DNA of 64,000 nucleotides, taken from IMG/VR virus record IMGVR_UViG_3300011335_000457, positions 1-64,000 of that record; one strand, 5' to 3'. The stretch is from a virus (lineage: Duplodnaviria; Caudoviricetes). A program made the translations under genes and the position numbers. Below, in pieces: positions 3,049-22,219 of the stretch (its first letter is position 1; every line of letters begins with the position of its first letter). Below the pieces are notes generated by a model. That model worked only from the letters and a program-made list of their open reading frames with translations, did no database searches and was not told the origin of the DNA.

Positions 3049-3193
3049 ATTATATGTTTTTAAATATATTCAAAGCAAAAAGTACTAATTTATATGCATT
3101 TAAATATAAAAAAGTTAATGCATATTATGTTATGCATAATCGGAAAAAAACCTACTTAATACATAATATATTACACATTAAGTAGGTTATATT

Positions 3194-4088: not shown

Positions 4089-4270
4089 ACATCTTCTTTA
4101 TCTAAATGACAATCATAACATAATACTGGAAATCCTGCAGGACTTTCATCTGCTGGCATATACATTTTATCACCTGTTGCTTGGACATATACTTCTTCTT
4201 TTGGATCTAAGTATACACCACATATAGCACAGTATTCTCCATTATCCATTTTATCACTAATTTCTCCCAT
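4085..4270 (-). CDS. Small zinc-ribbon protein
   Basis: CAICG...LCYDC, two CxxC pairs. Confidence 0.65.
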   Translation of the reverse strand: MGEISDKMDNGEYCAICGVYLDPKEEVYVQATGDKMYMPADESPAGFPVLCYDCHLDKEDV

Positions 4271-4276
4271 ATTATT

Positions 4277-4525
4277 TTAATTTTCAATGAAACAATCATC
4301 AAGAGCAATCCTCAACCAATCCTTAAATGATAAGAGATACAATGTTCTTGATACTTCAATCAGTTGACCATCTTTGGTAACTTTTCTCCATGCATTACCT
4401 GTCTTTACAAAACATGCTGGAGCATTATTATATCTTAAGAAAGAAATTAGTTGTCTTTCATCAGCAGGTGCTTTATCAGGATTCACATTAATAATGTTAT
4501 TCCTCCACCAAATTTGTGTTACCAT
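4277..4525 (-). CDS. Hypothetical protein
   Basis: Internal start MVTQIWWRNN chosen to limit overlap with the upstream zinc-ribbon ORF. Confidence 0.55.
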   Translation of the reverse strand: MVTQIWWRNNIINVNPDKAPADERQLISFLRYNNAPACFVKTGNAWRKVTKDGQLIEVSRTLYLLSFKDWLRIALDDCFIEN

Positions 4526-4661
4526 TTTCTTTAGGTGGAAAATAAGTTCCACATTCATTACATAAATACTCTTCTACTGGTCTTTCTTTTTTACTCCAAT
4601 CATAATTAGTATGAATGTTTTCACATTCACCACATTTTGGACAACATTCTTCTTCTGCCAT
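4497..4661 (-). CDS. Small zinc-ribbon protein (not in ORF track)
   Basis: Hand translation MAEEECCPKCGECENIHTNYDWSKKERPVEEYLCNECGTYFPPKENGNTNLVEE; CPKC and CNEC. Confidence 0.65.
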   Translation of the reverse strand: MAEEECCPKCGECENIHTNYDWSKKERPVEEYLCNECGTYFPPKENGNTNLVEE

Positions 4662-4662
4662 A

Positions 4663-5022
4663 TTATTTAATTTTAAGTATTTCTCTTACAAGGAACTGGA
4701 TTAGATAAGCATACACCTCTTCTGTCTCAAACCCTGGTTGTACTCCTATTTTATTAAGAACAGAATATGCTGCATGGTATGCTTCATGAGCTACCAAACC
4801 AAGTGTATCAGGTTCCTTTTTAATTTTACCTCTAAACCTAACTATTACAAAACCATCACTATGTGTCACAGTTCTAGCATCTGATTTCCAATCATCAAAT
4901 GCTAGATCAAATTGTTCTCTTGTAAACCTGTGACAAAGACAATCATATAGTTGGTCATCAGACTGATTAATAGATACTACTACATCTGTAGAAAACACAT
5001 CTATTGGTACTATCTTAAACAT
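4663..5022 (-). CDS. Minimal HExxH zincin-like metallopeptidase
   Basis: Start MFKIVPIDVF; VAHEAYHAAY...EEVYAYLIQFL. Confidence 0.65.
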   Translation of the reverse strand: MFKIVPIDVFSTDVVVSINQSDDQLYDCLCHRFTREQFDLAFDDWKSDARTVTHSDGFVIVRFRGKIKKEPDTLGLVAHEAYHAAYSVLNKIGVQPGFETEEVYAYLIQFLVREILKIK

Positions 5023-5023
5023 C

Positions 5024-5191
5024 CTATTCTGATTTAATTTTATCTTCAATTTTGCACAAATGTGCTCTAATCTCACTGTATAAACAGAGACCCAGTGCCA
5101 TAAACATTGAGTCTTTTTTATCTGTGTATAAGAATACAACTGTTAATATGCCAAATACAACTGCCAATATGTTATGCAATTTTCTACCCAT
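5024..5191 (-). CDS. Small membrane protein ending KSE (not in ORF track)
   Basis: MGRKLHNILAVVFGILTVVFLYTDKKDSMFMALGLCLYSEIRAHLCKIEDKIKSE; bounded by junction repeats at both ends. Confidence 0.65.
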   Translation of the reverse strand: MGRKLHNILAVVFGILTVVFLYTDKKDSMFMALGLCLYSEIRAHLCKIEDKIKSE

Positions 5192-5202
5192 CTTATTCTG
5201 AT

Positions 5203-5469
5203 TTATAAATTATCAAATTCTTTTTGTAACTCATCTCTCTCAAGCTCAACTCTGTCTATTTCCTTTATTAACATTTCTATGACAGATCCAAGAGCTTCAT
5301 TTTTTAAATAAAGTTCACATTTTGTTGAGTACATTCCAACATGATAAGTAATTTTAACTTGATTAATTTGACAACAACCTCTTGCATGTTGTAACTTGTT
5401 TAGATATGCAGTAAGTTCATCAATTTTGTCATTTAGCTTCTTAGCTTCTTGAAATTGTTTATTATTCAT
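5203..5469 (-). CDS. Coiled-coil hypothetical protein
   Basis: MNNKQFQEAKKLNDKIDEL...; helical termini. Confidence 0.65.
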   Translation of the reverse strand: MNNKQFQEAKKLNDKIDELTAYLNKLQHARGCCQINQVKITYHVGMYSTKCELYLKNEALGSVIEMLIKEIDRVELERDELQKEFDNL

Positions 5470-5803
5470 CTTGCTGTGGTTTACTCTCAAACTTATGCTT
5501 CATGATTCTTTTAATTAAATCAGCACAATAGTCTACATCATGTAGTGTAATTCTACCTGTTTTAGAGTCTACTTCTGAACAATGGTGTATTACTTGAAAT
5601 ACCCATTTATTAACTTCAGCTAACATGTCTTCTTGTTCTCTGTAAGCTTCATCTAACTTATTCTCTAAATATTCAATAGACTCATTTTTTGCAGCAATTG
5701 CTCTCTCAGCATTTAAAAGATCAAGTTCCATTGGATTATACACTGTAATAACAGGTTCTTTCTCTTTTTTAGGTCTTCCTGCTTTTTTCTTTTCTGTTTT
5801 CAT
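5462..5803 (-). CDS. Hypothetical protein with AT-hook-like N-terminus
   Basis: Start MKTEKKKAGRPKKEK (GRP AT-hook core). Confidence 0.6.
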   Translation of the reverse strand: MKTEKKKAGRPKKEKEPVITVYNPMELDLLNAERAIAAKNESIEYLENKLDEAYREQEDMLAEVNKWVFQVIHHCSEVDSKTGRITLHDVDYCADLIKRIMKHKFESKPQQDE

Positions 5804-5804
5804 A

Positions 5805-6050
5805 TTATTTCTTTTTAAATTGTTCAAACCATTCTTTTTCTGTTGATTTAAAGGTGTAGCCATATTTGCTGTTATAACCTACATTATTTTCACCTTGTCT
5901 AAATGCTTCTCTTAAATCTTCCTCACTATACATTCTTTCTTGTTGCCATTTAGCACCATCTACAAAGCCAAGTCCCCTTGCAGACTTTACAGACGGAGCA
6001 AAATTTTTTACATATTCTTTTGCAGCTTCTTTAATTTTTTCTTCTTTCAT
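5805..6050 (-). CDS. Hypothetical phage protein
   Basis: EAAKEY...GAKWQQERMYSEED...WFEQFKKK, a recurrent Bacteroidota-phage small protein pattern. Confidence 0.7.
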   Translation of the reverse strand: MKEEKIKEAAKEYVKNFAPSVKSARGLGFVDGAKWQQERMYSEEDLREAFRQGENNVGYNSKYGYTFKSTEKEWFEQFKKK

Positions 6051-6241
6051 AACTTCTTTTTTTGTTCTAAATAATCAATAATAAATCCAGCAGCAACTAG
6101 TATATTCATACCAAATGATGCTAATAACTCATATATGTCTTCATAGACATTTACAGACAGGTGTACATGACCTACCATCCAGAATGGTATAGATAAGTTT
6201 TGGCTTATCCATACCACCAGATATTTAATAAAATGGATCAT
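6047..6241 (-). CDS. Small membrane protein
   Basis: Two hydrophobic segments. Confidence 0.65.
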   Translation of the reverse strand: MIHFIKYLVVWISQNLSIPFWMVGHVHLSVNVYEDIYELLASFGMNILVAAGFIIDYLEQKKKL

Positions 6242-6628
6242 TTAGTCAGCATAGACAAACACATCATCAAGTAATTTACCTTTGATAATTTTACCGTATG
6301 CAGTTATTTCTCCAGGTACACCATAACCATTTTGTGCAGTACCTACTAATGATACAAAAACTGTATCTCCAAATTTTTTACTACCATAAAAATTACATGC
6401 TGTAGGTTTAAATGATGCTGAATTCTTACAGTTATACTTTAATTTAGTACACATGCTTTGTACAAAACCTGTGATTTCTTTCTTTCCACTAAGTTTATCC
6501 TCACATAAGTTACTAAATTTTACAGGGCCTTGAAATGTAGTTATATCTACATCAACTTCCCCTTTTTCAGAATTAAAACATGATGTTACTAACATCCCTA
6601 ATACTAATACACTAATTACTTTTTTCAT
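6242..6628 (-). CDS. Predicted lipoprotein
   Basis: MKKVISVLVLGMLVTS-C lipobox. Confidence 0.7.
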   Translation of the reverse strand: MKKVISVLVLGMLVTSCFNSEKGEVDVDITTFQGPVKFSNLCEDKLSGKKEITGFVQSMCTKLKYNCKNSASFKPTACNFYGSKKFGDTVFVSLVGTAQNGYGVPGEITAYGKIIKGKLLDDVFVYAD

Positions 6629-6652
6629 TTTGTTTTTGTTTTTGTTGGTTAA

Positions 6653-7108
6653 TTAATTTTTATTTATAAATTCAAAAGCATCTTTACTACTTGACATCAT
6701 AAACAGATAAGATTCTGAATCACAATATGACTCATTTATTCTTACCTTAAGCAATGAAGCTTTTTTAAAATCATTGGTTGCATCCGGATCTGATGCTAAA
6801 TCCCAAGTAATAAATATATTTTTAGAGTCACTAGACTTGGAACCTGTAAATGCATATTTTTTATTTACACCATCTACAAAAAATACTACATCTACTTTTG
6901 GTTTTTCATCACAATAGTAACTACCTGCAATATAAAATACAACTTTTCCATTTACATTTTCAAGTTTAGCATAGCCATCATTATTTAATGCTGTATATGC
7001 AATCTTGTAAGGCTCATCAAAACCATTATCAATAGTTTTATATGTCCATTGAGCATTAAGAGTTCCTACTGTTAATACTGCTAATACCAAATTAATCACC
7101 TTCTTCAT
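6653..7108 (-). CDS. Predicted secreted/periplasmic protein
   Basis: Signal peptide MKKVINLVLAVLTVGTLNA-Q; WTYKTIDNGFD start of mature domain. Confidence 0.7.
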   Translation of the reverse strand: MKKVINLVLAVLTVGTLNAQWTYKTIDNGFDEPYKIAYTALNNDGYAKLENVNGKVVFYIAGSYYCDEKPKVDVVFFVDGVNKKYAFTGSKSSDSKNIFITWDLASDPDATNDFKKASLLKVRINESYCDSESYLFMMSSSKDAFEFINKN

Positions 7109-7119
7109 TGTTTATTGTT

Positions 7120-7359
7120 TTATTGTTCATTACTTTCTCTGAGGGATTCTTCAAAGATTTTTCCCGCTGCCTGTATCTTTTCAGTCTCTGCTGAATTTTC
7201 AGATTCTCTTCTGAGTGATCTGGTGTTTTCCTGGTATCTTTCATACTCTTGCCAATTACTAATTTCTAGTTCTTTCATTCTTGTTATGTCAGCTATAGTA
7301 GCTTCCTGTGAAATGTCCCCATTCATAATATTAATACAAATTTCTTTCATTTTTCCCAT
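7120..7359 (-). CDS. Hypothetical protein
   Basis: 79 aa ORF, MGKMKEICINIMN. Confidence 0.6.
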   Translation of the reverse strand: MGKMKEICINIMNGDISQEATIADITRMKELEISNWQEYERYQENTRSLRRESENSAETEKIQAAGKIFEESLRESNEQ

Positions 7360-7793
7360 AGTCTCAATGCTTTACTAATTAATTCCTTAACAGCAACGTC
7401 TCTTCTTTTAACATCCTTTGCTATCATATACATATCTAGTTTCTTAAGAGTAGCAGGATCAAGATATGTAATTACACTACTACTTCTTTTGAATGTAGGA
7501 TCTTTTACTTCAGGAAACTTATAGGGAAACTTCATTGCTAACTCAGCTACATTTGCACTAAATGATATGTCTCTGAGTTTTAATAACATAGCTGGTTGAC
7601 TCTTAGAGTGATGTACTGTACATCTCTTCATGTCAAAGTCTCTGGATATGTATTCCTCCACTTCATAATATTTGTAGTACCGTAATGCAATAAGATAGTT
7701 TCTCATATCCATGTGCTGTCTACTTTTCTTTTCCTTAATCTTTGCTCTAACTTCCTTACAAGCTTCAAGTACCTCTTCATAAGTATAATCCAT
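7347..7793 (-). CDS. Putative DNA-binding protein (DnaA domain IV-like HTH plus C-terminal ribbon-helix-helix-like segment)
   Basis: SR...MRNYLIA...ISRDFDMKRCTVHHS resembles the DnaA C-terminal HTH; VITYLDPATLKKLDMY...RDVAVKELISKAL resembles RHH. Confidence 0.5.
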   Translation of the reverse strand: MDYTYEEVLEACKEVRAKIKEKKSRQHMDMRNYLIALRYYKYYEVEEYISRDFDMKRCTVHHSKSQPAMLLKLRDISFSANVAELAMKFPYKFPEVKDPTFKRSSSVITYLDPATLKKLDMYMIAKDVKRRDVAVKELISKALRLWEK

Positions 7794-7795
7794 AA

Positions 7796-7975
7796 CTACA
7801 TGAAAAAAGGAAATAATAGACCTTTAATTTCTGCTACAAAGGGTCCAATAAACAAACTACTTAGGAAACCATGAGTTTGAGCCCATTGAAACCAGAAGTA
7901 AAAAGTAAAGATATGTGCTACAAAGAAGTAGACATAGAAAATTGATACACCAATGATGCCTAAGTTGTCTTTCAT
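7796..7975 (-). pseudogene. Frameshifted small membrane protein
   Basis: MKDNLGIIGVSI in one frame continues as FYVYFFVAHIFTFYFWFQWAQTHGFLSSLFIGPFVAEIKGLLFPFFM in another; one extra T in TCAATTTCTATG restores a single ORF. Confidence 0.5.
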
Positions 7976-7991
7976 AATAAATTTTTTAAGT

Positions 7992-8270
7992 TTAAACTAA
8001 ATCTAAATTTGCTACCAGTTCTTCTGGTTCTTCTTCTCTAAGTACTTGTTGTAAAGATATGATTGGTACAAATCTGTCTGAATTGTAATACTCATAAGGA
8101 AATGATTGTTCTGATAACTGTACTTCTTTAAGTTTATAACCAAATCTACCAGCTTGTAGACCCATTTTACTTATTTCTATAACAGTATAGATTTCACCTT
8201 CTTTGACCCACTCATACGGAGAGATCTTTTTTGGTTTATTTTCAGCATTGATACACACAACTCTTAACAT
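7992..8270 (-). CDS. Conserved hypothetical protein (SH3-like)
   Basis: RVVCINAENKP...VKEGEIYTVIEI...YNSDRF pattern. Confidence 0.65.
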   Translation of the reverse strand: MLRVVCINAENKPKKISPYEWVKEGEIYTVIEISKMGLQAGRFGYKLKEVQLSEQSFPYEYYNSDRFVPIISLQQVLREEEPEELVANLDLV

Positions 8271-8506
8271 AAGTTTTCTAATTCACAGTTAATATCTAGA
8301 TCATCAAATGTACTTTTTAATTCATACATATCCAAATAGTTACCAGATTTTACAGAACATTTTCCTATATTATGTGCTACAACAGCACACTGCTCAGCTT
8401 GTATTGGATCATGTTTACACATTCTAATAAGACAAGCTGTAATATAATCATATGAATTTACATCATCATTATAAATAACTACTTTGTGTGTTTTATTGTC
8501 TTCCAT
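8264..8506 (-). CDS. clpS: ClpS-like N-degron adaptor of ClpAP
   Basis: MEDNKTHKVVIYNDDVNSYDYITACLIRMCKHDPIQAEQCAVVAHNIGKCSV matches Bacteroidota ClpS (L-x-NDD-x-N...H...QAEQC...H..GKC). Confidence 0.85.
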   Translation of the reverse strand: MEDNKTHKVVIYNDDVNSYDYITACLIRMCKHDPIQAEQCAVVAHNIGKCSVKSGNYLDMYELKSTFDDLDINCELENLC

Positions 8507-8510
8507 ATTA

Positions 8511-9605
8511 CTAATATAATGAAATATTAAAATCTTTCCAAATAATTTTAGTCTGATCAAATCCTTCAAGTGCTTCCTTAACCCATTTTTCATCCACTGT
8601 ATCCATATAACATAGTATGTGGACAATAGCTTTATCATCTGGGTTTAATCGGAGTAACCTACCTATTCTTTGTGCAGCCTTTCTTTCATTACCATATGCA
8701 TGCATAATAATGCCTTGTCTCAAGTTAGGTATGTTTACACCCTCATTTAACTGCATTACAGTAGATAACTTAGTTATTTCTCCTGCTTTAAACATTCTCA
8801 GATTCTCTTCAGATTCTGGATTCTTGCTATGATAACTGTGTGAACAGAGCATATCAGCTTGTGCTTGAGTATTTGCAAATAAAATACATTTACTATCTAT
8901 GTCACTAAATAGCTTTTTAACATATCTTTCTTTACTTGGATACTCCATTAGAGCTTTCATCCTCATAACTCTCAGCATATGCATGTTTCCACTACCTACA
9001 TCAAGTCTTCTTGACCAGTAAGTATAATTAGATGTCTCAGCTGTAAAGTATGTCTTGTTGGACATTTTAGCTTCATATACTTTCTCATTGCTTAAACTTA
9101 ACTGGTGTACAACAATCTGATAGTCATTTAGTATTCCATTCTCTACAGCATCATCTGCCTTGAATGTAAATACTACAGGACAGAACTCTTGCACTAACCT
9201 ACCCTTCTCTGAGAAACTTCTTTTTGGAGGAGTACCAGTAAGACCGAGGATCTTGCCCTTATAAAGTTGCAAGAAACCCCGGTGACTGTCTAGTAAACTA
9301 TGCATCTCATCCAAATAGACTACATCATAATCAGTAGGCTTGTGTTTATTCAAACTTAGATAAGTAGTGAATACCATTCTACCTAATAATTCTTCTTTTC
9401 CAAATTTCACAGCATCATCTTTCCATGACTGGAAGATTGCTTTCTTTGGTGCTACTACAAGAACTTTCATCAATGGTGTAGTATTATTCTCCAAATGTGT
9501 TAGGCCAACAAGGGTCTTACCGACCCCTGTAGCCAAAACAACAGAACAAGCTCTCCTACCATTAGTAGCTTCTAATGCTTCTCTTTGAATGTCATTTTTG
9601 TTCAT
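8511..9605 (-). CDS. SF2 DExH helicase (UvsW/ResIII-like)
   Basis: LATGVGKT (motif I), DEMH (II), GLTGTP (III), QRIGRLLR (VI). Confidence 0.9.
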   Translation of the reverse strand: MNKNDIQREALEATNGRRACSVVLATGVGKTLVGLTHLENNTTPLMKVLVVAPKKAIFQSWKDDAVKFGKEELLGRMVFTTYLSLNKHKPTDYDVVYLDEMHSLLDSHRGFLQLYKGKILGLTGTPPKRSFSEKGRLVQEFCPVVFTFKADDAVENGILNDYQIVVHQLSLSNEKVYEAKMSNKTYFTAETSNYTYWSRRLDVGSGNMHMLRVMRMKALMEYPSKERYVKKLFSDIDSKCILFANTQAQADMLCSHSYHSKNPESEENLRMFKAGEITKLSTVMQLNEGVNIPNLRQGIIMHAYGNERKAAQRIGRLLRLNPDDKAIVHILCYMDTVDEKWVKEALEGFDQTKIIWKDFNISLY

Positions 9606-9653
9606 ATAATAAATTAATTTTACAAGAATCTAGTCCCTAATAATTAAGTATAC

Positions 9654-9818
9654 TTATTCTGACTTGCAATTTAATTCATTAACTAACATAGCAGTTATTT
9701 CATCTAGTTTACTAATTCCAAAATCATTTTTCATAGACTCACATGATTTAATATCTGTGCTACCTTTTGCTTCTTTGTTACCATCTGTTACGGTAACTGT
9801 AATTTTTAAATTTTCCAT
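9654..9818 (-). CDS. Small protein ending KSE (not in ORF track)
   Basis: MENLKITVTVTDGNKEAKGSTDIKSCESMKNDFGISKLDEITAMLVNELNCKSE. Confidence 0.6.
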   Translation of the reverse strand: MENLKITVTVTDGNKEAKGSTDIKSCESMKNDFGISKLDEITAMLVNELNCKSE

Positions 9819-9885
9819 CTTTATTGTTTTATAAATTTTTTACAAATTAAGTGTATTTTTTTAAAATAACTCATCTTATTTTGAT

Positions 9886-10155
9886 TTAGTAATAATTGTT
9901 GTTGATAATATTACCGTGAATAATTTTTCTTGTTTCTTCTGTATATTCTGAAAAATTAACATCCATACCTAAACCATCTAATATACAAACTTGCCCTCTG
10001 TAAGTATAGAATCCAAGAAGTTCATTATGCTCAGGCTCATTAATGAAGATACTATTATTAAATGTTTTTTCATTTGTTTTATTTCTTCCAATCTTATCTA
10101 GGATTTCTTTTTCATACTCACATGAAGCATGTTGTATTATGTTTTTTCTACTCAT
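9886..10155 (-). CDS. Hypothetical protein
   Basis: 89 aa ORF between two junction repeats. Confidence 0.65.
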   Translation of the reverse strand: MSRKNIIQHASCEYEKEILDKIGRNKTNEKTFNNSIFINEPEHNELLGFYTYRGQVCILDGLGMDVNFSEYTEETRKIIHGNIINNNYY

Positions 10156-10173
10156 CTTATTCTGATTTAAAGG

Positions 10174-10284
10174 TTAAAATTTTATTGATAAAGTTTTTGT
10201 TAGCCAACCAATAGTGATTTCTTTTCTACCATCATTGTACTTATTAAAAGTAAGGAGAGGTAATATTATAAATACTGTTTTCAT
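10174..10284 (-). CDS. 36-aa microprotein
   Basis: MKTVFIILPLLTFNKYNDGRKEITIGWLTKTLSIKF; fills the gap in the array. Confidence 0.5.
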   Translation of the reverse strand: MKTVFIILPLLTFNKYNDGRKEITIGWLTKTLSIKF

Positions 10285-10311
10285 TGTTACAATTTAAAGT
10301 TTTGTTATTAA

Positions 10312-10524
10312 TTAATAATCAGAACCTATTTCAAGTATAGCTATAGCATTTCCTATTGTTATTAATGTTTTTTGTTTTTTTAAAAGTAAATTAAAACAGT
10401 TGTTAATTATTTCTTCTGGTGCATTAGTCTTAATTAAATTATTAAAATCTTCAAGCTCATTATTCCTTTTATTTTCTAAATAAGGAATGTGGTTTTTTAA
10501 TTTATCTACTGCTGTTTGTTTCAT
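10312..10524 (-). CDS. MKQTAV-family small protein
   Basis: Starts MKQTAVDKL directly after a junction repeat. Confidence 0.65.
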   Translation of the reverse strand: MKQTAVDKLKNHIPYLENKRNNELEDFNNLIKTNAPEEIINNCFNLLLKKQKTLITIGNAIAILEIGSDY

Positions 10525-10525
10525 C

Positions 10526-10756
10526 TTATTCTGATTTAGTTTCTAATGCTTTTAATAAGGCATCTGCAAGTCTAACTGCATATAAAGGAACTTCTACTTC
10601 CATTTCATCTATACCATTGTGTCTACCAGGTATAGATCTTACACTTAATCCTGTTGCTATTTGTATAGCAAAGTATTCTCTTTTAGTTAATCCTTCTTGT
10701 AGATATTGCTTTTGAGAATCTACACAAGCAAATGCTCCTTGTTTTCCATTTTCCAT
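10526..10756 (-). CDS. Conserved phage small protein (GLTKREYFA...AVRLADALL family)
   Basis: Widespread phage motif; ends TKSE in a junction repeat. Confidence 0.75.
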   Translation of the reverse strand: MENGKQGAFACVDSQKQYLQEGLTKREYFAIQIATGLSVRSIPGRHNGIDEMEVEVPLYAVRLADALLKALETKSE

Positions 10757-10757
10757 C

Positions 10758-10958
10758 TTATTCTGATTTAAAAGTTAATTCATCTAATTTTATTTGGTAC
10801 TCTTTACCATCTTTGAAGCCTTTTAGGTATTCTTTAGCTCTTTCTGCTTTGTCCATTTCTTTTGCTTGTTCAAACCAATTGTTAATATTACCAACCATTT
10901 CATCAGATGTACAAGTTGAAAATTTATTATATAACCATTCTACTGCTGTATTTTTCAT
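10758..10958 (-). CDS. MKQTAVEWL-family small protein
   Basis: MKNTAVEWL...QAKEMDK...TFKSE. Confidence 0.75.
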   Translation of the reverse strand: MKNTAVEWLYNKFSTCTSDEMVGNINNWFEQAKEMDKAERAKEYLKGFKDGKEYQIKLDELTFKSE

Positions 10959-11152
10959 GATTTTGATTTAAAGTTTATTATTTCTTGTTTAACTTGCTGC
11001 CAATCATACTTTTCTTCAACCGCTTTTAATATTTCATCAATTGCTATTAATGCACATTGTTTAGAATACGGATAATTTACAGAACAAAATATATCATTGT
11101 CTAATATTACAAATTTATCCACTAACTCTTTTGCTTTCTCTTTAGGTGTCAT
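10955..11152 (-). CDS. Conserved phage small protein (MTPKEKAKEL family)
   Basis: MTPKEKAKELVDKF...KQCALIAIDEIL...WQQVKQEI. Confidence 0.75.
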   Translation of the reverse strand: MTPKEKAKELVDKFVILDNDIFCSVNYPYSKQCALIAIDEILKAVEEKYDWQQVKQEIINFKSKS

Positions 11153-11190
11153 ATATTATGATTTAAAGGTTATTTATTTTTTTAAATTTT

Positions 11191-11286
11191 TAATAAATTA
11201 TTTTACCATCCAAAAACAGCATATAAAAACCATATCAAAAAAGCTGCAAATCCCATTGAAATATACCAATCCATAAAATTGCTCAT
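11191..11286 (-). CDS. Membrane microprotein
   Basis: MSNFMDWYISMGFAAFLIWFLYAVLDGKIIY, a single hydrophobic helix. Confidence 0.45.
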
Positions 11287-11358
11287 AACATTCCTGAAAT
11301 TATCACTTTTGCAGAATTTTATTAGTTTTTGTACCTGTTTTGTAATATTATTTTTCAT

Positions 11359-11601
11359 TTATTCTGATTTAGTTTCTAATTTAATCCAATCTTCAAAGTT
11401 TAATATTTTCATATCCTTCCTGTCACATCTTATTGCAAATTCAGCATATTTATGTGACTGCTCCTTCTCCATTGCTTTGACTTGTTCTTGTACAGATTTC
11501 AATCTTTCCCAATAAGTTTTCTTGTCAATTAGCTTCATATCAAATTCTTGGTCTATATATAACCATTCGTTACATAACCACTCTACTGCTGTCTGTTTCA
11601 T
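11359..11601 (-). CDS. MKQTAVEWL-family small protein
   Basis: MKQTAVEWL...QVKAMEKEQ...TKSE. Confidence 0.75.
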   Translation of the reverse strand: MKQTAVEWLCNEWLYIDQEFDMKLIDKKTYWERLKSVQEQVKAMEKEQSHKYAEFAIRCDRKDMKILNFEDWIKLETKSE

Positions 11602-11603
11602 TT

Positions 11604-11708
11604 TTATTTTTTTAAGTTAATAATTTCACCAGTTCCTAATACTACACTACATTTCTGTCTGCCATCAGTAGCTTTAATTGCTTCTTCTTGGACTTGATCT
11701 TTTGTCAT
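11604..11708 (-). pseudogene. Truncated 5' remnant of an SF2 helicase gene
   Basis: MTKDQVQEEAIKATDGRQKCSVVLGTG aligns with helicase N-terminus MNKNDIQREALEATNGRRACSVVLATG, then breaks before GKT. Confidence 0.7.
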
Positions 11709-11709
11709 T

Positions 11710-12459
11710 TTAAATTAAATTAAATACATTTCTTTGGATAAACTGATTAGCCTCAGATACATCTGTCATAGCTTTAATAATCTTGATGTTATCATCAATG
11801 TTCTGAAGAGTAGCTTTATGGTCATAATTTTTACTATTATAGGCCTGAATAAATACTCTCAAGAAATTGTGCTTAACCCATCTGTCAGCTTTACCAATCT
11901 TAATAAACAAATCACTAAAGTCTTTACACATTGCTTGTGCTCTAGCATTAGTAACTCTAAAGTTACCATTTTTAATAAGCTCACTTGCTGCATAAACACC
12001 ATTATATGAATCTGCATTATTACAGATACCAGCAATCATCAGTGGTTCAAGATTATACAATTCTTTGTACTTTTTAAGTGTAAGATAATCTGGATGAATA
12101 AATTTCCATGCATTTACATAATCCATAAGTTTCCAAGACTTAGATGAATTATTATAAAAAGCCATTTTTCTAACTATATCATCCTCATCTATAATCTCAA
12201 TATACCTATACTCTATAGGAAGACCCTCTCTTTGACAAGCATGTACTAAATGTTGACCATCAATAATGAATGTTTTTAGTTCACCGTCAATGCAGTTTGT
12301 TTTAATACATATTACTTGTCTTGTAACTCCCATCTCACGGATGCTTTGCACTAATGCTTCTACTTGTTTAGAATCAATAGTTCTGTTCATTGGTAAATAG
12401 TTAAACAGTGTATAATCTGTTGTAACTGCAATTTGAATAAATCCTTTTTTCATAATCAT
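11710..12459 (-). CDS. ParB/sulfiredoxin-like N-terminal domain protein
   Basis: NRTIDSKQVEALVQSIREMG...FIIDGQHLVHAC...GLPIEY. Confidence 0.75.
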   Translation of the reverse strand: MIMKKGFIQIAVTTDYTLFNYLPMNRTIDSKQVEALVQSIREMGVTRQVICIKTNCIDGELKTFIIDGQHLVHACQREGLPIEYRYIEIIDEDDIVRKMAFYNNSSKSWKLMDYVNAWKFIHPDYLTLKKYKELYNLEPLMIAGICNNADSYNGVYAASELIKNGNFRVTNARAQAMCKDFSDLFIKIGKADRWVKHNFLRVFIQAYNSKNYDHKATLQNIDDNIKIIKAMTDVSEANQFIQRNVFNLI

Positions 12460-12481
12460 AAATTTTTAAATCATTAATAAA

Positions 12482-12757
12482 TCAGTACTTTTTTAATATC
12501 TCATTTATTACAGCACTGTCCTCAATAGATATTGCTAAATAAAGCTCTGAGAGCTTGTCTACATTATTATTAAACTCCTCTTCAGATTTGGAAATATATT
12601 TAGGCAAAACTCTATTTGCTTTAATTACTTCATTGTCTACAAGGTATTCAACAACTGCTTCTAATTCTTTTTCACTACACTCATCTAGAATATCTGCAAT
12701 GTCTACATCCACATATTCATCAACATCTATTGTAGTTGTAAGTTGAACTTCCGGCAT
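12482..12757 (-). CDS. Acidic hypothetical protein
   Basis: 91 aa, D/E-rich N-half. Confidence 0.7.
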   Translation of the reverse strand: MPEVQLTTTIDVDEYVDVDIADILDECSEKELEAVVEYLVDNEVIKANRVLPKYISKSEEEFNNNVDKLSELYLAISIEDSAVINEILKKY

Positions 12758-12767
12758 ACTTTTTATT

Positions 12768-12947
12768 TTAAATCTTCTCTGTCTTAATTAAAAGACTGTT
12801 TGCATATAAGGTGTTCTTAAATGCGGCAATAGCAAGCTTCCCAGCTTCAAGTTTGCCATCTTTGTTAAAATTTTCATAAGCCTTGTTGCCAATCACTTCT
12901 GATTTGTCTGCAACATCTTTGATCTGTTTTGTGTTTACTTTACTCAT
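12768..12947 (-). CDS. Hypothetical helical protein
   Basis: Start MSKVNTKQIKDV; coupled to the upstream gene end. Confidence 0.65.
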   Translation of the reverse strand: MSKVNTKQIKDVADKSEVIGNKAYENFNKDGKLEAGKLAIAAFKNTLYANSLLIKTEKI

Positions 12948-13584
12948 ACATTTGGTTCTTAAGTTTACGTTTAATAATAATCTGTTTTTTTTTGATCTCA
13001 ATTAAATTGGGTGTAATATCTTCAGGACTAAGACACCGTATAGAATTAAGTATAAGAGTTTTAATGTAATTATCATCAAGATTTCTTCTTGCAATACTAG
13101 CTAAATGTGCACTAATTTTATCATTTTGAAATATAGAAAACTCTTCTAATTCCATTGTTGAATATGATAACTTACAAAATTGATCAATACCATATCTACA
13201 ATGTTTACATCTATCTATTCTTTTCTTATCTTTTGATAAACCTATGCATTCATTTTTTTCAGTAAGTTGACTACCACATGTCTTACATACTGTTGGTTCC
13301 TTTTTTAGTGCCCTAATAGTTGCTCTTCTAGTCCCTATTACTCTTTTGTAATATGATCTCTTTTCTAATAGTTTTCTTTGTCTTATTGAAAGTTCTCTAA
13401 GTTCAGGATCACTATACTCAACTCTGCACCATTTAGCATTTCTTATACAATACTTACATTTCTTTCCTATATGACCAAAAGTATTATCAGGATTTTTGCT
13501 TAATATCCATGTTCTTTGTGTTAAGTCAACAGTACATACACTACAGTTTTTACTAACTTGTTTTATTTCCATAACTAGATGCAA
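12940..13584 (-). CDS. Multi-CxxC (zinc finger) hypothetical protein
   Basis: CSVC, CKYC, CKTC, CKHC; C-terminal DDNYIK...ITPNLIEIKKKQI motif. Confidence 0.65.
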   Translation of the reverse strand: MHLVMEIKQVSKNCSVCTVDLTQRTWILSKNPDNTFGHIGKKCKYCIRNAKWCRVEYSDPELRELSIRQRKLLEKRSYYKRVIGTRRATIRALKKEPTVCKTCGSQLTEKNECIGLSKDKKRIDRCKHCRYGIDQFCKLSYSTMELEEFSIFQNDKISAHLASIARRNLDDNYIKTLILNSIRCLSPEDITPNLIEIKKKQIIIKRKLKNQMYE

Positions 13585-13989
13585 TCATTTTAACCATCCC
13601 ATAGTTCTAGCTTCTGCTGGATTATTGTGGATATGGTTGTGACATACTCTACAAACAGATAAAAATGTGGATTGCACTAAGTAAAAAGCATTTCTATTAC
13701 TTCCAGCAAATGTGTGGTGAATATCAGTTGCATTATGCATGCACTCTGATACTCTTACCATACATAAAGGATTCTCTGTTAGATATCTTTGTCTTAGTTT
13801 GCTATACTCAGCATCTTTCTTTGCCCTTTTAGCGGAGACACGGGGGATTTCAGAACTTGTTGGTTTCTGTATATTTTCTCCGCTTTTGTGGCAACTCCAG
13901 CAGTTTTTGCATAATTTTAATCCCCCAGTTCCACTGCTTTTCCAGATTACTGAATCCTTTCCGCACCCATCACATACTTTTAACTTCAT
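13585..13989 (-). CDS. HNH endonuclease (NinG-like) with N-terminal zinc finger
   Basis: CDGC...CKNC; LCMVRVSECMHNATDIHH...LSVCRVCHNHIH. Confidence 0.75.
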   Translation of the reverse strand: MKLKVCDGCGKDSVIWKSSGTGGLKLCKNCWSCHKSGENIQKPTSSEIPRVSAKRAKKDAEYSKLRQRYLTENPLCMVRVSECMHNATDIHHTFAGSNRNAFYLVQSTFLSVCRVCHNHIHNNPAEARTMGWLK

Positions 13990-14455
13990 GTTTTAATCTT
14001 GGTAATTGATTTGGGTCTCTCTCTAAACTTAAAAAGTTTTTAGGTAGTACTCCCTCTGCTATAAAGATACTAATAATATCTTTTTTCTCAATACCTAAAT
14101 CTTTAAAAGTTAGTGTGTTCTTAAACTTGTCATCTGTCTCAGTATTAGCCAGTAAGGCATCTGTAAGAGGACTGTTTGGGAACAATGTTTTGAACAAAAG
14201 ATTAGTATACTGTATAGTAAACTCTTGTTTAAGTTTATTGATAACTACTTGAGCTCTCTTATAAACATTAATAACTCTTTGTCTCTTTTTGCTACACATA
14301 GTAGCTAGTTCTTGTTCTGAAAGTGCACTTAGACCATAAAGTGCTCTTTTATAAAGATAATTCTGGTACTCTGAATAACTGTCTGTTTCATATTGCATAT
14401 AGGTCTTACCTGCATACAATTGATAATCTTTAATCTGTTGTTTTAACTTTTCCAT
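13970..14455 (-). CDS. Conserved hypothetical protein
   Basis: 161 aa ORF, YQNYLYKRALYGL motif. Confidence 0.7.
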   Translation of the reverse strand: MEKLKQQIKDYQLYAGKTYMQYETDSYSEYQNYLYKRALYGLSALSEQELATMCSKKRQRVINVYKRAQVVINKLKQEFTIQYTNLLFKTLFPNSPLTDALLANTETDDKFKNTLTFKDLGIEKKDIISIFIAEGVLPKNFLSLERDPNQLPRLKHEVKSM

Positions 14456-14478
14456 TTTTATACATTTTTAATCATAAA

Positions 14479-14508
14479 TAAAAAGAGAGGGATATTTCTA
14501 CCCCTCTC
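14479..14508 (-). terminator. Intrinsic terminator
   Basis: GAGAGGGG-TAGAAATAT-CCCTCTC followed by TTTTT on minus strand after 14531..15010. Confidence 0.75.
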
Positions 14509-14530
14509 ATACTAACTAACTTAGACTATC

Positions 14531-15010
14531 TTAGATAGATAAATCTTCAGTTGGACGTGCATTGTTTATAGCACTTGATGTACCTGATTGCAAAGCATAT
14601 GCCTCACGCAATTGATCAACATTATCATGTTTGATAAGTGTATCTTGAGCATTAGATGCTGATGAGTATACAGTTTTACGGAAGATAGGTGCACCTTCAA
14701 ATGTGCAAATAATACCTGTAGAACCTGCTACTTTAAGATCACGCTCAGGAGATTTTGCATTAAATGGCTCTAAAGCTTCTTTAATAACAATTTGACCTGG
14801 TAATTCTTGTCCAGCATAAAAATTCATAGCTTTCAATTCATTGATATCACCATGTATTAATGTGCTAACTGGTTTTCTACGCAAGAAACCATTGTCATCA
14901 ATGACAGATCTTACTTGCTCTAATCTAACATAACCAAATTGTGCATTACCAGATAATGTAATGATAGATCCTGTAGTAGCATCAGCTACAACTTTAACTT
15001 TTGTGTTCAT
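14531..15010 (-). CDS. Conserved beta-rich protein, possible OB-fold ssDNA-binding protein
   Basis: FGYVRLEQVR...LPGQIVIKE...GIICTFEGAPIFRKT; fold assignment is inference. Confidence 0.5.
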   Translation of the reverse strand: MNTKVKVVADATTGSIITLSGNAQFGYVRLEQVRSVIDDNGFLRRKPVSTLIHGDINELKAMNFYAGQELPGQIVIKEALEPFNAKSPERDLKVAGSTGIICTFEGAPIFRKTVYSSASNAQDTLIKHDNVDQLREAYALQSGTSSAINNARPTEDLSI

Positions 15011-15125
15011 AACCTTAAGTTTTAAAATAAATAAATAAATAATTGATTGTTTGAGTTGATTTTACTATATCATTAGTTACTCTTACTAAGTGATAAGTGC
15101 TTAATACCTTATTGCAATTCAGGTA

Positions 15126-15395
15126 TTATATGTCCAAAGGGCCCGATAAATCTATAATATCATCAAATGGGTCATCATCTGATATTACATTGTCTTCACT
15201 TTCATCATCTGCTAGATAATCAAAGTCATAATATTTCTCTTGTTTGTTGTCCTCTACTGCTGAGCCATTGAATGGGTCTCTTACATACTCACCATACTCT
15301 ATTGATATGAGGTATTGTATATCTTCATCAGTCATATCAAGGAACTGATCTAGGGATAAATTAATTACTTTACCATTTGGTAATTGATACTGCAT
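15126..15395 (-). CDS. Highly acidic protein (candidate DNA mimic)
   Basis: 25 D/E versus 4 K/R in 89 aa (hand count). Confidence 0.7.
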   Translation of the reverse strand: MQYQLPNGKVINLSLDQFLDMTDEDIQYLISIEYGEYVRDPFNGSAVEDNKQEKYYDFDYLADDESEDNVISDDDPFDDIIDLSGPLDI

Positions 15396-15488
15396 TGAGG
15401 CATAAAAAATATGCTAGTAAATGTAGTGCATTTAATTTAACACCTAAAGTTTAAACCAATAAAATTTAGCAATATATAGCTAAACAAT

Positions 15489-15510
15489 AAAGAGGGGAAT
15501 CTCACCCCTC
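15489..15510 (-). terminator. Intrinsic terminator-like hairpin
   Basis: GAGGGG-TGAGATT-CCCCTC-TTT on minus strand. Confidence 0.55.
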
Positions 15511-15547
15511 CGTATTTTGGTCAGGAAAAGTGTAACAGATACACTTC

Positions 15548-15967
15548 TTAAAATTCCTCAATAACTTCTAAATCCTTTTCTGCTATATAATCAGTATTTA
15601 CTTTAGTTGTGCCAGCTGCTATAACTCCAGTATATTCAACAACATACTCACTATACTGATGATAACCTCTGAATTCCTTTACAGTTATTACAATCTTATC
15701 ATCCATATCAGCAAACTTCTGTCTGGTAGCTTCCTTATCTATACCATAACCAAGGTTATTAATAGACATTTTGCATAATGTACCATTAGGTATAATATAC
15801 GGCAACTTATTACCAATCATCAGCTTAAAGAAATGATTCACACCTTGTGAGCTATCACATATCATAGGAGTAAGTAACTTAACAAACTCCTCAGAATTAG
15901 AGTCCTTGATGATCTTACTGAGAGCTTTTGCTACATCAGTATCATCATATGTAACACTCACTTTCAT
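15548..15967 (-). CDS. Hypothetical protein
   Basis: 139 aa ORF starting in a junction repeat. Confidence 0.7.
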   Translation of the reverse strand: MKVSVTYDDTDVAKALSKIIKDSNSEEFVKLLTPMICDSSQGVNHFFKLMIGNKLPYIIPNGTLCKMSINNLGYGIDKEATRQKFADMDDKIVITVKEFRGYHQYSEYVVEYTGVIAAGTTKVNTDYIAEKDLEVIEEF

Positions 15968-16255
15968 TTATTCTGATTTAAAGGTTAATAATTCAAGTGC
16001 TTTTTGAAAGCCAACCATATAAGTATTTTGAATTGTGGCGGCATATATACTGGTATCGTATTCCTTTGGGTCTGCTAATTGTTGGATTGCAAACTCTTTA
16101 GCTAACTCTTCTAAATTATAATCTGACATAGTTAAATATTGCTCCTTCTCCATTGCTTTGGCTTGTTCCCAATCAATGTTAGCTATAAATTTCTCATAAG
16201 TATTGCGAGAGTTATATATCTCTCTTAACCATTCTATTACTGTCTGTTTTGTCAT
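15968..16255 (-). CDS. MKQTAVEWL-family small protein
   Basis: MTKQTVIEWL...QAKAMEKEQ...TFKSE. Confidence 0.75.
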   Translation of the reverse strand: MTKQTVIEWLREIYNSRNTYEKFIANIDWEQAKAMEKEQYLTMSDYNLEELAKEFAIQQLADPKEYDTSIYAATIQNTYMVGFQKALELLTFKSE

Positions 16256-16460
16256 TTTTTTCTGATTTAAAGGTTTCGTTGTAGTATTGTTCTGCTTCTT
16301 CTTTGTCCAAAAACTTTTGTGTTTGTTTATGGAAAGCCTCTATTATCTGCTCCTTCTCCATTGCTTTGGCTTGGTTAATAATTTCTTCAAAATGTTTATA
16401 TGGCATACCAATGCTATTTTTTAATTCACTTTCTAACCACTCTACTGCTGTCTGTTTCAT
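16212..16460 (-). CDS. MKQTAVEWL-family small protein (junction stop lost, reads through)
   Basis: MKQTAVEWL...QAKAMEKEQ...TFKSE-KND; TAA of the junction replaced by AAA. Confidence 0.75.
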   Translation of the reverse strand: MKQTAVEWLESELKNSIGMPYKHFEEIINQAKAMEKEQIIEAFHKQTQKFLDKEEAEQYYNETFKSEKNDKTDSNRMVKRDI

Positions 16461-16930
16461 TTGATTATAATTTCAGGGTTATTAATATTTTTATTTTCCT
16501 TTAAGTACTTAACTGCAGCTTCTATTGAGCTGTGTGTTTTATACGGAGACAATGGTAATACTCCACTTTTTTCATCATAGACATGTACATGGTTATTACA
16601 AGTGAATGTTACAACTAGTTCACTTCCTAATATTTTCTTTACTGTTGTTGTTTTAACATCTTGATTTAAACAATGAGCATACTTATTTAAGTTATCAAAT
16701 GTTGCTCCTGATTCAGTCATAATATAATTATGCTGAGTAGTAACTAAAGCTAATACTCCAGTTGAATCTCCAGTAACAAAAGCAAAGATATTTTCATCAT
16801 CCCTACCATTCATCTCTAAATATTCATTAAACTCTTTTTCACTTTCCCTTGTTACTAAAGTGTAACCCTTTCCTAGGCTAATATTCATCTCATACTTGCC
16901 CTTTTTACTGATTTTTCTTAATGTATACAT
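16457..16930 (-). CDS. Hypothetical protein
   Basis: 157 aa ORF. Confidence 0.65.
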   Translation of the reverse strand: MYTLRKISKKGKYEMNISLGKGYTLVTRESEKEFNEYLEMNGRDDENIFAFVTGDSTGVLALVTTQHNYIMTESGATFDNLNKYAHCLNQDVKTTTVKKILGSELVVTFTCNNHVHVYDEKSGVLPLSPYKTHSSIEAAVKYLKENKNINNPEIIIK

Positions 16931-16966
16931 ATATATATTTATTTATTTGTGTGATTAGATACAGAA

Positions 16967-17326
16967 TCACACTGACTGTTTTTTCTTTAATTTAATTTTA
17001 ATACATTCATTGTACAGATACTCAATTAGATAAGCAAATGGTTCATGGTTTTTACTTGTAAACTCTACACCAAAATACTCTAATATTCTGTGTGTAGCAT
17101 GAAACAACTCATGAACCAATATGCCTAATTTAGAATCTTGAAGATCAATACATAACCACCAATTTGCAGATTTACTTTCATGATTCCAAAATAAGCAGGC
17201 CTCTGAATCATCATCTTCATTGTAATCATCACCTTTAATTTCCATTAGTGCTTCTTTGGTATCTTTACAGTCTACCAGATGAAGAGTACCATTGTATATT
17301 GGTATTGGTATTATGTACTTGGTCAT
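16967..17326 (-). CDS. Minimal HExxH zincin-like metallopeptidase (paralog of 4663..5022)
   Basis: LVHELFHATH...HEPFAYLIEYL. Confidence 0.65.
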   Translation of the reverse strand: MTKYIIPIPIYNGTLHLVDCKDTKEALMEIKGDDYNEDDDSEACLFWNHESKSANWWLCIDLQDSKLGILVHELFHATHRILEYFGVEFTSKNHEPFAYLIEYLYNECIKIKLKKKQSV

Positions 17327-17335
17327 AGTTTTAAT

Positions 17336-17858: not shown

Positions 17859-17970
17859 AATTATAAGTTTTAATTAATAAAAAATGCTTGTCTTTCCAAG
17901 CTGTCACCCACTTATAAGCCTCTAGGTTATTGTTCCTGTCAGGGTAAGGCAACTAGTTGCATTGCAACTG

Positions 17971-18056
17971 TAGTCAGGACAGGATTCGAACCTGTGACCT
18001 CTGAAAATCCTGATTGGTTACAGCATATCATGCTCTGACCTCTGAGCTACCTGACT
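17971..18056 (-). tRNA. tRNA-like element with abnormally long anticodon arm (isotype unassignable)
   Basis: Acceptor AGTCAGG/CCTGACT, D-arm GCTC-AGAGGTCA-GAGC, T-arm ACAGG-TTCGAAT-CCTGT; anticodon plus variable region 35 nt instead of about 22; no CCA. Confidence 0.65.
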
Positions 18057-21822: not shown

Positions 21823-21864
21823 TGTATATAATTTTAAAGTTTAACATAAGTAAAAAGCTGTATA

Positions 21865-21886
21865 AAAAAAAGGGGATTACTCCCCT
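21865..21886 (-). terminator. Repeated terminator, copy 2
   Basis: AGGGGA-GTAA-TCCCCT-TTTTTT. Confidence 0.8.
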
Positions 21887-22173: not shown

Positions 22174-22219
22174 AATATAAAGATTTAAAGTTAATACTAG
22201 TAATAAGCTGTATAATACA

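Follow-up and report, generated by a model that had tools for sequence, protein, structure and literature searches.

A repeated stop-start joint in a crAss-like phage: the 3′ end of a mini-gene family joined to the next start codon

In a 64,000-nucleotide stretch of the virus record IMGVR_UViG_3300011335_000457 (Duplodnaviria; Caudoviricetes), here called the window, a short motif recurs on the minus strand at the borders of small genes, where it ends one reading frame and mostly supplies the ATG of the next. We find that this motif is not a free-standing repeat. It consists of the last six codons, the stop codon and the spacer of a mini-gene with the signature MKQTAVEWL..QAKEMEKEQII..YYNETFKSE, together with the start codon of the gene behind it. 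It is conserved at the nucleic-acid level, it is linked to the starts of real genes in a context that fits initiation in the host phylum, and alignments between phages end at it more often than at other gene starts. On comparison of these sequences the motif is probably best read as a portable stop-start joint, which would give the next gene a start independent of Shine-Dalgarno pairing and double as a favoured crossover point. An earlier note on this DNA, made from the sequence alone, had described the motif and proposed an integrase-free, integron-like system of cassette shuffling.

Copies of the motif in the window

Read on the minus strand, the consensus in the window is TTAAC(C/T)TTTAAATCAGAATAA(G)ATG. 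Its 12-mer AAATCAGAATAA has 11 matches in the window at ≤1 mismatch, ten of which are minus-strand matches within 5024-16268, compared with 2.1 ± 1.2 in dinucleotide shuffles, none of which reaches 11 in 100 trials. A scan allowing two mismatches adds 10958-10969, which corresponds to a copy placed at 10956 by the earlier note, and 11153-11164, which was not listed there; it finds no extra copy in the remainder of the 80.5-kb contig. The reported recurrence at gene boundaries is thereby borne out, with 12 copies in place of 11: all 12 lie at borders of small, tightly packed minus-strand genes. That the element supplies the next ATG holds for ten of them, which lead directly into the ATG of an open reading frame (ORF) of 51-139 aa; the copy given as 9651 has no ATG, and the ATG of the 9872 copy opens 17 codons. 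In minus-strand order the copies are:

16253-16274, minus strand: motif in which AAA replaces TAA (ACCTTTAAATCAGAAAAAAATG); the family gene upstream continues through it, and the ATG starts family gene 15968-16255
15965-15985, minus strand: motif AACCTTTAAATCAGAATAA-ATG, without the G spacer; closes family gene 15968-16255 and starts a conserved 139-aa gene
11356-11370, minus strand: motif; closes family gene 11359-11601 (..LETKSE) and starts a 51-aa ORF
11150-11170, minus strand: degenerate copy ACCTTTAAATCATAATATATG; starts a 65-aa gene (phrog_21441)
10956-10975, minus strand: degenerate copy AACTTTAAATCAAAATCATGA with an ATGA stop/start overlap; closes the 65-aa gene (..NFKSKS) and starts family gene 10758-10958
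10754-10775, minus strand: motif AACTTTTAAATCAGAATAAGATG; closes family gene 10758-10958 and starts a 76-aa gene (phrog_2201)
10522-10537, minus strand: motif; closes the unrelated 76-aa gene (..LETKSE) and starts family gene 10312-10524
10153-10174, minus strand: orphan copy TTAACCTTTAAATCAGAATAAGATG; the 36-aa ORF upstream stops at the TAA of TTAACC, in another frame, and the ATG starts an 89-aa gene
9872-9887, minus strand: orphan copy AAATCAAAATAAGATG; the upstream 89-aa gene stops at an overlapping TAA, and the ATG opens 17 codons only
9654-9665, minus strand: copy without ATG, AAGTCAGAATAA; closes a 54-aa gene (..NCKSE), the helicase start lying 48 nt further on
5189-5204, minus strand: orphan copy; the upstream 88-aa gene stops at an overlapping TAA, and the ATG starts a 55-aa gene
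5020-5035, minus strand: copy with a TAG stop, AAATCAGAATAGGATG; closes the 55-aa gene (..KIKSE) and starts a 119-aa gene (phrog_1365)

Tails of KSE and stop close six ORFs (15968-16255, 11359-11601, 10758-10958, 10526-10756, 9654-9818 and 5024-5191), as had been described. Also correct is the earlier description of the upstream gene as stopping ahead of the element at 5189, 9872 and 10153, where the ORF ends before it or on its first bases, and of a mutated TAA with read-through at 16253, where AAA has taken its place and the ORF is 16212-16460.

A mini-gene family with the motif as its 3′ end

The proteins ending in KSE had been called unrelated. This is true of the 76-aa gene, but five neighbouring genes are paralogs, with a MKQTAVEWL start, an AKAMEKEQ middle and a (YYNE)TFKSE end in common:

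16212-16460, minus strand: paralog 1 (MKQTAVEWL..AKAMEKEQ..QYYNETFKSE, then read-through)
15968-16255, minus strand: paralog 2, 95 aa
11359-11601, minus strand: paralog 3, 80 aa
10758-10958, minus strand: paralog 4, 66 aa
10312-10524, minus strand: paralog 5, 70 aa, with the N-terminal block only and a different tail

Beyond the window, the exact 19-mer TTTAAATCAGAATAAGATG occurs in at least 119 IMG/VR contigs. We fetched 125 stretches for the neighbourhoods of the motif, a first set that was picked by the motif itself. In this set 105 of the 140 ORFs ending in the motif (75%) belong to the MKQTAVEWL family, a tie that the earlier note had overlooked, and the ORFs starting at its ATG form 116 clusters out of 215. 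At the level of codons the motif is the 3′ end of the family, TAC TAC AAC GAA ACC TTT AAA TCA GAA TAA, followed by the spacer G and the next ATG.

The family is large, with at least 5,286 clusters at E ≤ 0.001 in a protein search in which 8,000 candidates were scored. Its proteins of ~60-80 aa are predicted by AlphaFold to form four helices (pLDDT 87). Foldseek gave no match in PDB, every VIA-align Z being <5, and Pfam and PHROGs returned nothing above threshold; two database relatives have a weak match to DUF5452, below the cut-off. A literature search found no mention of the motif, of the peptide words of the family or of DUF5452.

Conservation at the nucleic-acid level

The family blocks are conserved well beyond the encoded peptide. 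We compared codon use in the conserved columns of the family with that in long ORFs of the same contigs:

3′ block, Thr ACC: 13/14; genome-wide 11%
3′ block, Ser TCA: 15/15; genome-wide 29%
3′ block, Tyr TAC: 29/30; genome-wide 36%
3′ block, Asn AAC: 12/13; genome-wide 38%
middle block, Ala GCC: 45/53; genome-wide 9%
middle block, Glu GAG: 38/45; genome-wide 34%
middle block, Gln CAG: 43/53; genome-wide 30%
5′ block, ACA GCA GTA: about 77-88% each; genome-wide 41-43%

Synonymous sites in the blocks are nearly fixed, and the middle block is rich in GC-rich rare codons (GCC, GAG, AAG, CAG). Between the blocks lie segments of variable length that defy alignment. For one member of the protein sample, the first of these segments (V1) is found paired with 45 types of the second (V2), and its V2 with 26 types of V1; given this free pairing, the family is a modular mosaic with three conserved handles.

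The use of reading frames at the motif points the same way. Among 179 distinct, fully flanked instances scored for ORFs of ≥30 aa, 55% close an ORF in the KSE frame, 24% close one in a different frame, for the most part with the TAA of CTT-TAA or T-TAA-CC, and 18% close none. With instances spread over frames, and some ending no ORF at all, the peptide cannot explain the motif, and a C-terminal KSE tag was rejected as the main cause, since 42% of the instances lack an ORF end in the KSE frame. The earlier suggestion that conservation acts on the nucleic acid rather than on the peptide is therefore upheld: the block is kept in other frames or without an ORF end. A structured RNA over the family gene was likewise considered and rejected; the mean z-score of the minimum free energy (MFE) of 69 family mRNAs is 0.0, and as these mRNAs have no excess secondary structure, the blocks are not helices of such an RNA. 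Orthologous pairs carrying the motif yielded five valid cases only, four identical and one deleted, the loose 12-mer having drawn false sites in large genes.

The phage, its relatives and its host

G000, the IMG/VR contig of 80.5 kb whose first 64 kb form the window, has 32% G+C and a CheckV completeness of 67%. Its large terminase subunit (TerL), portal and major capsid proteins match PHROGs of crAss-like and Flavobacterium phages, tblastn gives 23-27% identity to crAss-like phages and to Flavobacterium phage FpV4, and an 1827-aa ORF at 57480-62963 contains a Crassvirus muzzle domain. Three IMG/VR contigs served as relatives: G004 (118 kb, 99% complete, TerL 83% identical), G001 (121 kb, terminal repeats, TerL 72% identical) and G005 (114 kb, TerL 54% identical). 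All relatives compared are metagenomic contigs, in which false joins at repeats of 30-40 nt are possible. Among cultured phages the mini-gene family is confined to 68 Flavobacterium phage records, and the exact 19-mer is present in Flavobacterium, Flavobacteriales and other Bacteroidota assemblies. From the PHROG and tblastn matches, the cultured carriers of the family and the assemblies bearing the 19-mer, the host of G000 is very probably a flavobacterium. ARAGORN places a tRNA-Ile (GAT) of 87 nt at 17970-18056 on the minus strand, inside the early arm.

A start region of the host type

The ribosomes of Bacteroidota work without Shine-Dalgarno pairing (PMC6847099; PMC7797042). Baez et al. 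identified A at -3, -6, -12 and -13, together with low structure, as positive determinants of initiation in F. johnsoniae (2019, PMC6847099). Written as TTTAAATCAGAATAAG-ATG, with the A of ATG at 0, the motif carries A at exactly -3, -6, -12 and -13 and TTTAAA at -16 to -11, and it shares all features of the Bacteroidota initiation region that we compared: the A positions, an A-rich stretch at -14 to -11, low structure and no Shine-Dalgarno sequence. The motif-free gene starts of G000 have a similar make-up, with T at -15, A at -14 to -10, A at -7 to -3 and almost no G. Pairing with the 16S rRNA 3′ tail would be limited to AGAA.

The motif is firmly linked to translation starts. An ORF of ≥30 aa begins exactly at the motif ATG in 88% of the 179 instances, compared with 28% for random ATGs of the same DNA. 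A start weight matrix built from 338 motif-free starts of G000, G004 and G001 gives the motif 3.97 bits, which is the 53rd percentile of real starts, while random sites score -3.7 ± 3.3 (~2.3 standard deviations lower). In 51-nt windows the mean MFE is -1.5 kcal/mol at the copies, -2.6 at other starts and -5.5 in random windows. The spacing is retained as well: in an independent family sample, gathered by N-terminal and middle peptide patterns only and not by the motif, the next ATG lies 16 nt from T[TA]TAAA (F/Y-K codons) in 22 of 53 members, and a spacing of 14-17 nt is seen in 35 of 53, irrespective of the tail sequence.

The joint also occurs outside phages. The 23-mer AACTTTTAAATCAGAATAAGATG of window positions 10754-10776 is identical in isolates of F. 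cheongpyeongense and F. chungangense, where it (L231:4394-4414, L239:6110-6130) fills nearly the whole gap between two paralogous genes for two-transmembrane (2TM) domains. By the look of its sequence, a gene beside this pair encodes a LytTR-type response regulator. The host copy could be a chance likeness, could mean that the joint originated in the host, or could stem from an ancient phage-to-host transfer. We rejected the motif as a host-wide repeat: each of two Flavobacterium genomes has one exact copy, and at ≤3 mismatches 18-20 matches stand against 7-10 in the reversed control, a ~2-fold excess. A programmed frameshift at TTTAAAT was dropped too: slippage at this heptamer would need the reading frame of the downstream gene, and that gene is presumably untranslated before its ATG.

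Read one base out of frame, the joint gives ..T(T)KPLNQNKM, which appears as a false N-terminal extension on several database proteins; examples are ORF 2688-3120 of the reversed locus L219 (in the jumbo phage G002), P0003 and L124. Gene callers add this extension because the joint has no stop in the frame one base off.

Mosaic borders and the helicase hot spot

The motif crosses phage lineages. The jumbo phage G002 (224 kb) contains ten copies and the jumbo phage G003 (187 kb) one; neither has homologs of the TerL, portal or capsid protein of G000, and in G002 the motif closes genes unrelated to the MKQTAVEWL family. In an all-versus-all comparison of the fetched stretches, the 3′ ends of alignments cluster at +15 to +18, right behind the ATG, and the 5′ ends at the middle block of the family and at the left edge of the motif. 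At identities of ≥80%, internal alignment ends at motif junctions (213 strict sites) are 2.8 times as frequent as at other gene starts within 1.5 kb, and the enrichment is 3.1-fold at 88% identity and 7.4-fold at 95%. The earlier note had proposed, among other checks, to see whether breakpoints fall in the motif, and motif junctions are indeed preferred as mosaic boundaries.

Individual borders illustrate the pattern. All copies in the window lie within three slots that vary relative to G004 and G001. Positions 15968-17335 of G000 are a four-gene insertion relative to G004, and the right border of this insertion (15967/15968) is exactly the motif and the ATG of the conserved 139-aa gene, which has a different start region in G004. 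The slot at 4094-5478 of G000 holds genes unrelated to those at 58800-60050 of G004, and the motif punctuates both. A further relative, L255, shares both borders of the 2-kb array (9620-11656) with G000 and carries other cargo; the right-hand homology begins inside the copy at 9654-9665 and continues through the 48-nt spacer into the helicase. Of the clean insertions or deletions (indels) between close contigs, 23 in all, none has the motif at both borders; the only one that involves the family arose by unequal crossing-over between 5′ blocks of paralogs in tandem. Two 119-aa paralogs (phrog_1365) were also seen, one (4663-5022) directly behind a motif copy, the other (16967-17326) at the left end of the four-gene insertion.

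A duplicated fragment of a superfamily 2 (SF2) helicase gene forms the left limit of the 2-kb array, and the intact gene stands on its other side:

11604-11708, minus strand: duplicated helicase 5′ fragment of 34 codons, broken in the Walker A GTG; left border of the array
8511-9605, minus strand: intact SF2 helicase gene, to the right of the array

The helicase 5′ end is a recurrent insertion hot spot, in which a duplicate of the first 33-37 codons, broken at the Walker A GTG, precedes varying cargo: a GIY-YIG/NUMOD1 homing endonuclease in L253 (2591-4621), three small genes in L255 (1697-3581) and nine in G000. G004 and several other relatives have no insertion there. A second GIY-YIG gene splits the 3′ part of the helicase in L252 (5755-7945) and in L255. 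The helicase duplicate at the left border, the varying cargo and the homing endonuclease in L253 indicate that the slot of the array was opened by another mechanism than the joint.

Comparison with known systems

Integron cassettes are the system to which the array had been likened. Both are arrays of small, promoterless, same-strand genes parted by a recurring element. Integrons differ in possessing an integrase, attC sites with imperfect inverted repeats that fold as a hairpin, and single-cassette indels bounded by the element. In 51-nt windows the motif copies contain no inverted repeat or hairpin. The earlier statement that no integrase is present agrees with our searches: the tyrosine recombinase domain PF00589 has no match in G000 (67% complete) or in the three near-complete relatives G001, G004 and G005, and the serine recombinase domain PF00239 none in G000. 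Together with the 23 indels, none of them motif-flanked on both sides, and a left array border formed by the helicase fragment, these results speak against an integron-like cassette array.

Nor does the motif look like a promoter. Sigma-70-like sites and the Bacteroidota TAnnTTTG box were found at no copy, by scans that do not cover phage-specific promoters; terminator-like sites on the minus strand lie at 14508-14485 and 15511-15491 and at none of the copies. A promoter for a crAss-type virion RNA polymerase was rejected, as the motif also occurs in non-crAss jumbo phages and a host operon and has no promoter-like box. Early transcripts of the crAss-like phage phi14:2 have no detectable common upstream motif. 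As a separate observation, four successive small minus-strand genes at 21822-22789, with gaps of 54-56 nt, show a different pattern, ..TTAAATTATATAT, right before the ATG; these had been listed separately in the earlier reading as promoter-gene-terminator units.

Closer parallels come from two phage elements. Pope et al. described the start-associated sequences (SAS) of Cluster K mycobacteriophages, for which a role in translation initiation was proposed and whose reader is unknown (2011, PMC3203893). Like the motif, SAS are short asymmetric repeats in one orientation in the non-structural arm, near the ATG of genes from different families, sometimes with the upstream stop inside, and nearly absent from the host genome. 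The motif is indeed linked to starts on one strand in the early arm and rare in hosts; it has no GGAG or AGGAG. SAS, by comparison, have an AGGAG Shine-Dalgarno core and are confined to a single phage cluster, whereas the motif has no Shine-Dalgarno sequence, crosses unrelated lineages, is also the coding tail of one gene family and contains both stop and start codons. Promoter early stem-loops (PeSLs) of T4-type phages, ~100 bp long with a sigma-70 promoter and a terminator hairpin, flank cassettes on both sides; recombination between copies gives deletions and encapsidated mini-circles, the latter demonstrated by experiment. They are proposed to steer integrase-free homologous recombination to harmless intergenic sites while supplying an expression signal (Arbiol et al. 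2010, PMC2839356; Comeau et al. 2014, PMC4122927). Both PeSLs and the motif are conserved signals for expression that recur where small variable genes of hyperplastic regions border on one another, and mark differences between close relatives. Unlike PeSLs, the motif is 16-25 nt long (up to ~40 with the coding block), would act in translation and not in transcription, and has neither a hairpin nor indels flanked on two sides. The motif is thus not a member of the SAS or PeSL families.

Ordinary translational coupling offers the nearest geometry, with stop and start adjacent (ATGA, TAATG, TAAnATG); in the motif they are 1 nt apart. Other tails of the MKQTAVEWL family form ATGA overlaps, the same geometry as in coupling junctions. 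Such junctions are, unlike the motif, not kept as a 20-nt word across thousands of genes and several phage lineages.

A proposed portable joint and its rivals

How might such a joint work? Under the reading that we favour, small early genes would be packed head to tail on one mRNA and translated by ribosomes that ignore Shine-Dalgarno sequences. The joint would close the upstream frame: two frames of its core contain a TAA, and in the TTAACC variant so does the third. It would then offer an unstructured, A-rich initiation region, and by placing the next ATG 1 nt behind the stop it would let the downstream gene be translated by coupling or re-initiation. It may have arisen as the tail of the MKQTAVEWL mini-gene, which it mostly still is, and would survive the replacement, frameshifting or deletion of the family gene in front of it, because the downstream gene needs its start region; orphan copies and unrelated proteins with KSE ends would be the outcome. 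Since the same 20-40 nt are common to many paralogs and co-infecting phages, the joint would also be a favoured point for crossovers by ordinary homologous recombination, which would carry it and adjacent genes between unrelated phage lineages with no dedicated recombinase. Coupled translation driven by the joint is an inference, as is the view that crossovers take place within it and are not simply selected at that site. Of the alternatives that the earlier note had itself named, a translational-coupling signal is thus the better-supported functional reading, and an RNA-binding factor is retained below as a rival of small probability.

Several results weigh against the portable joint. As a start site the motif is only average among real starts, and as initiation needs only a degenerate sequence, translation alone does not explain its near-invariance. 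The codon conservation of the 5′ and middle blocks is as strong as that of the 3′ block, yet these blocks are not start regions, so that at least these two must be subject to something besides translation, for instance gene conversion or an unidentified reader. The KSE tail is one among several, found in 17 of 76 members of the independent sample; others are ..ETYKK, ..ETFNK, ..ETFKQQEQ and ..ETYESKTNI, mostly with ATGA or TAAnATG junctions. The copies at 9654 and 9872 precede no real gene. The p values of the breakpoint enrichment, 1e-8 to 8e-6, are uncorrected for the relatedness of contigs, and assemblers may falsely join metagenome contigs at just such 30-40-nt repeats. In a bolder extension of the reading, unrelated Flavobacterium phages would exchange genes by way of the whole family as a universal adaptor, with its three blocks as recombination handles and the 3′ joint securing translation of each newly attached gene; in co-infected cells, homologous recombination supplied by the phages themselves would reassort the variable segments and the gene behind the joint. 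We regard this as possible but rather doubtful.

The strongest competitor reverses the order of causes. The motif would be a dedicated shuffling linker of the PeSL or cassette kind that exists mainly for the gain, loss and exchange of small genes, with translation secondary. The 2.8- to 7.4-fold enrichment of breakpoints would fit, as would the slot shared with G004 that has different genes and the motif in both genomes, the joining of unrelated genes in unrelated lineages and the use of the motif in all three frames. Against it, none of the 23 indels is flanked on both sides, the crossover of the sole family case lies in the adjacent 5′ block, and what borders the array on the left is the helicase duplicate and not a motif copy. 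A core identity of 16-25 nt is moreover short for efficient homologous recombination, and selection for intact genes alone would leave surviving breakpoints at gene boundaries, so that we consider this explanation unlikely. Recombination of the integron type, with an attC-like site, has least in its favour, as has a phage RNA polymerase promoter giving leaderless transcripts. An oriented element repeated at cassette-like gene borders, in a crAss-like phage whose group injects a virion RNA polymerase (10.1101/2020.03.07.982082), invites both ideas. They are largely refuted and very improbable in view of the missing tyrosine recombinase (G000, G001, G004, G005) and serine recombinase (G000), of copies without inverted repeat, hairpin, sigma-70-like site, TAnnTTTG box or terminator, of the lack of indels motif-flanked on both sides, of the phi14:2 transcripts and of the occurrence in non-crAss jumbo phages and a host operon.

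Two further explanations address the near-invariance, and to each we assign a small probability. One is a binding or cleavage site on the mRNA for a trans-acting factor that co-regulates early genes, be it a repressor like RegA of T4, an endoribonuclease like RegB of T4 or the family protein itself. Near-exact conservation over ~22 nt goes beyond the need of a degenerate start region, the copies are strand-specific and all in the early arm, host genomes seldom contain the motif, no gene but that of the family is obviously common to all carriers, and SAS raise the same possibility (PMC3203893). Yet no candidate reader was found, the four-helix model of the family protein having no informative structural match; copy number varies from 1 to 12 among close relatives, unlike a fixed regulon; and the other two family blocks are equally conserved away from starts. 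The other, about as improbable, is a passive relic: the 3′ end of a young, fast-spreading family, with orphans in decay and conservation due to recent descent or gene conversion. Family members make up 75% of the motif-ended ORFs, all three blocks share the same codon-level conservation, and the copies at 9654, 9872, 10956 and 11150 are degenerate or have no downstream gene. Simple recency is contradicted by inter-block sequences that have diverged past alignment next to nearly identical blocks. A relic would also not be expected to keep an ATG opening a real ORF in 88% of copies, to preserve the spacing to the next ATG across different tails, or to serve a host gene in identical form in two Flavobacterium species.

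Implications

It is a long-standing question by what means tailed phages exchange small accessory genes when no site-specific recombinase is at hand, with answers ranging from the linker idea to random illegitimate recombination followed by selection. The linker idea for phage gene exchange reportedly goes back to Susskind and Botstein. Concrete linker sequences are few, namely the PeSLs of T4-type phages and, as a possible translational analogue, SAS. The general phenomenon is already known, and the joint is a variant of it. What this case offers is a sharply defined stop-start word of 20 nt, tied to a mini-gene family with thousands of variants and common to at least two unrelated lineages of phages of Flavobacteria, in a host phylum that starts translation without Shine-Dalgarno pairing.

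For annotation, an out-of-frame reading of the motif yields a false N-terminal extension (..TKPLNQNKM). For the biology of these phages, both halves of the portable joint, the coupling signal and the crossover site, can be tested in cultured Flavobacterium carrier phages and in the reporter systems of F. johnsoniae. The adaptor reading, if true, would mean integrase-free, translation-coupled exchange of gene cassettes across viral families.

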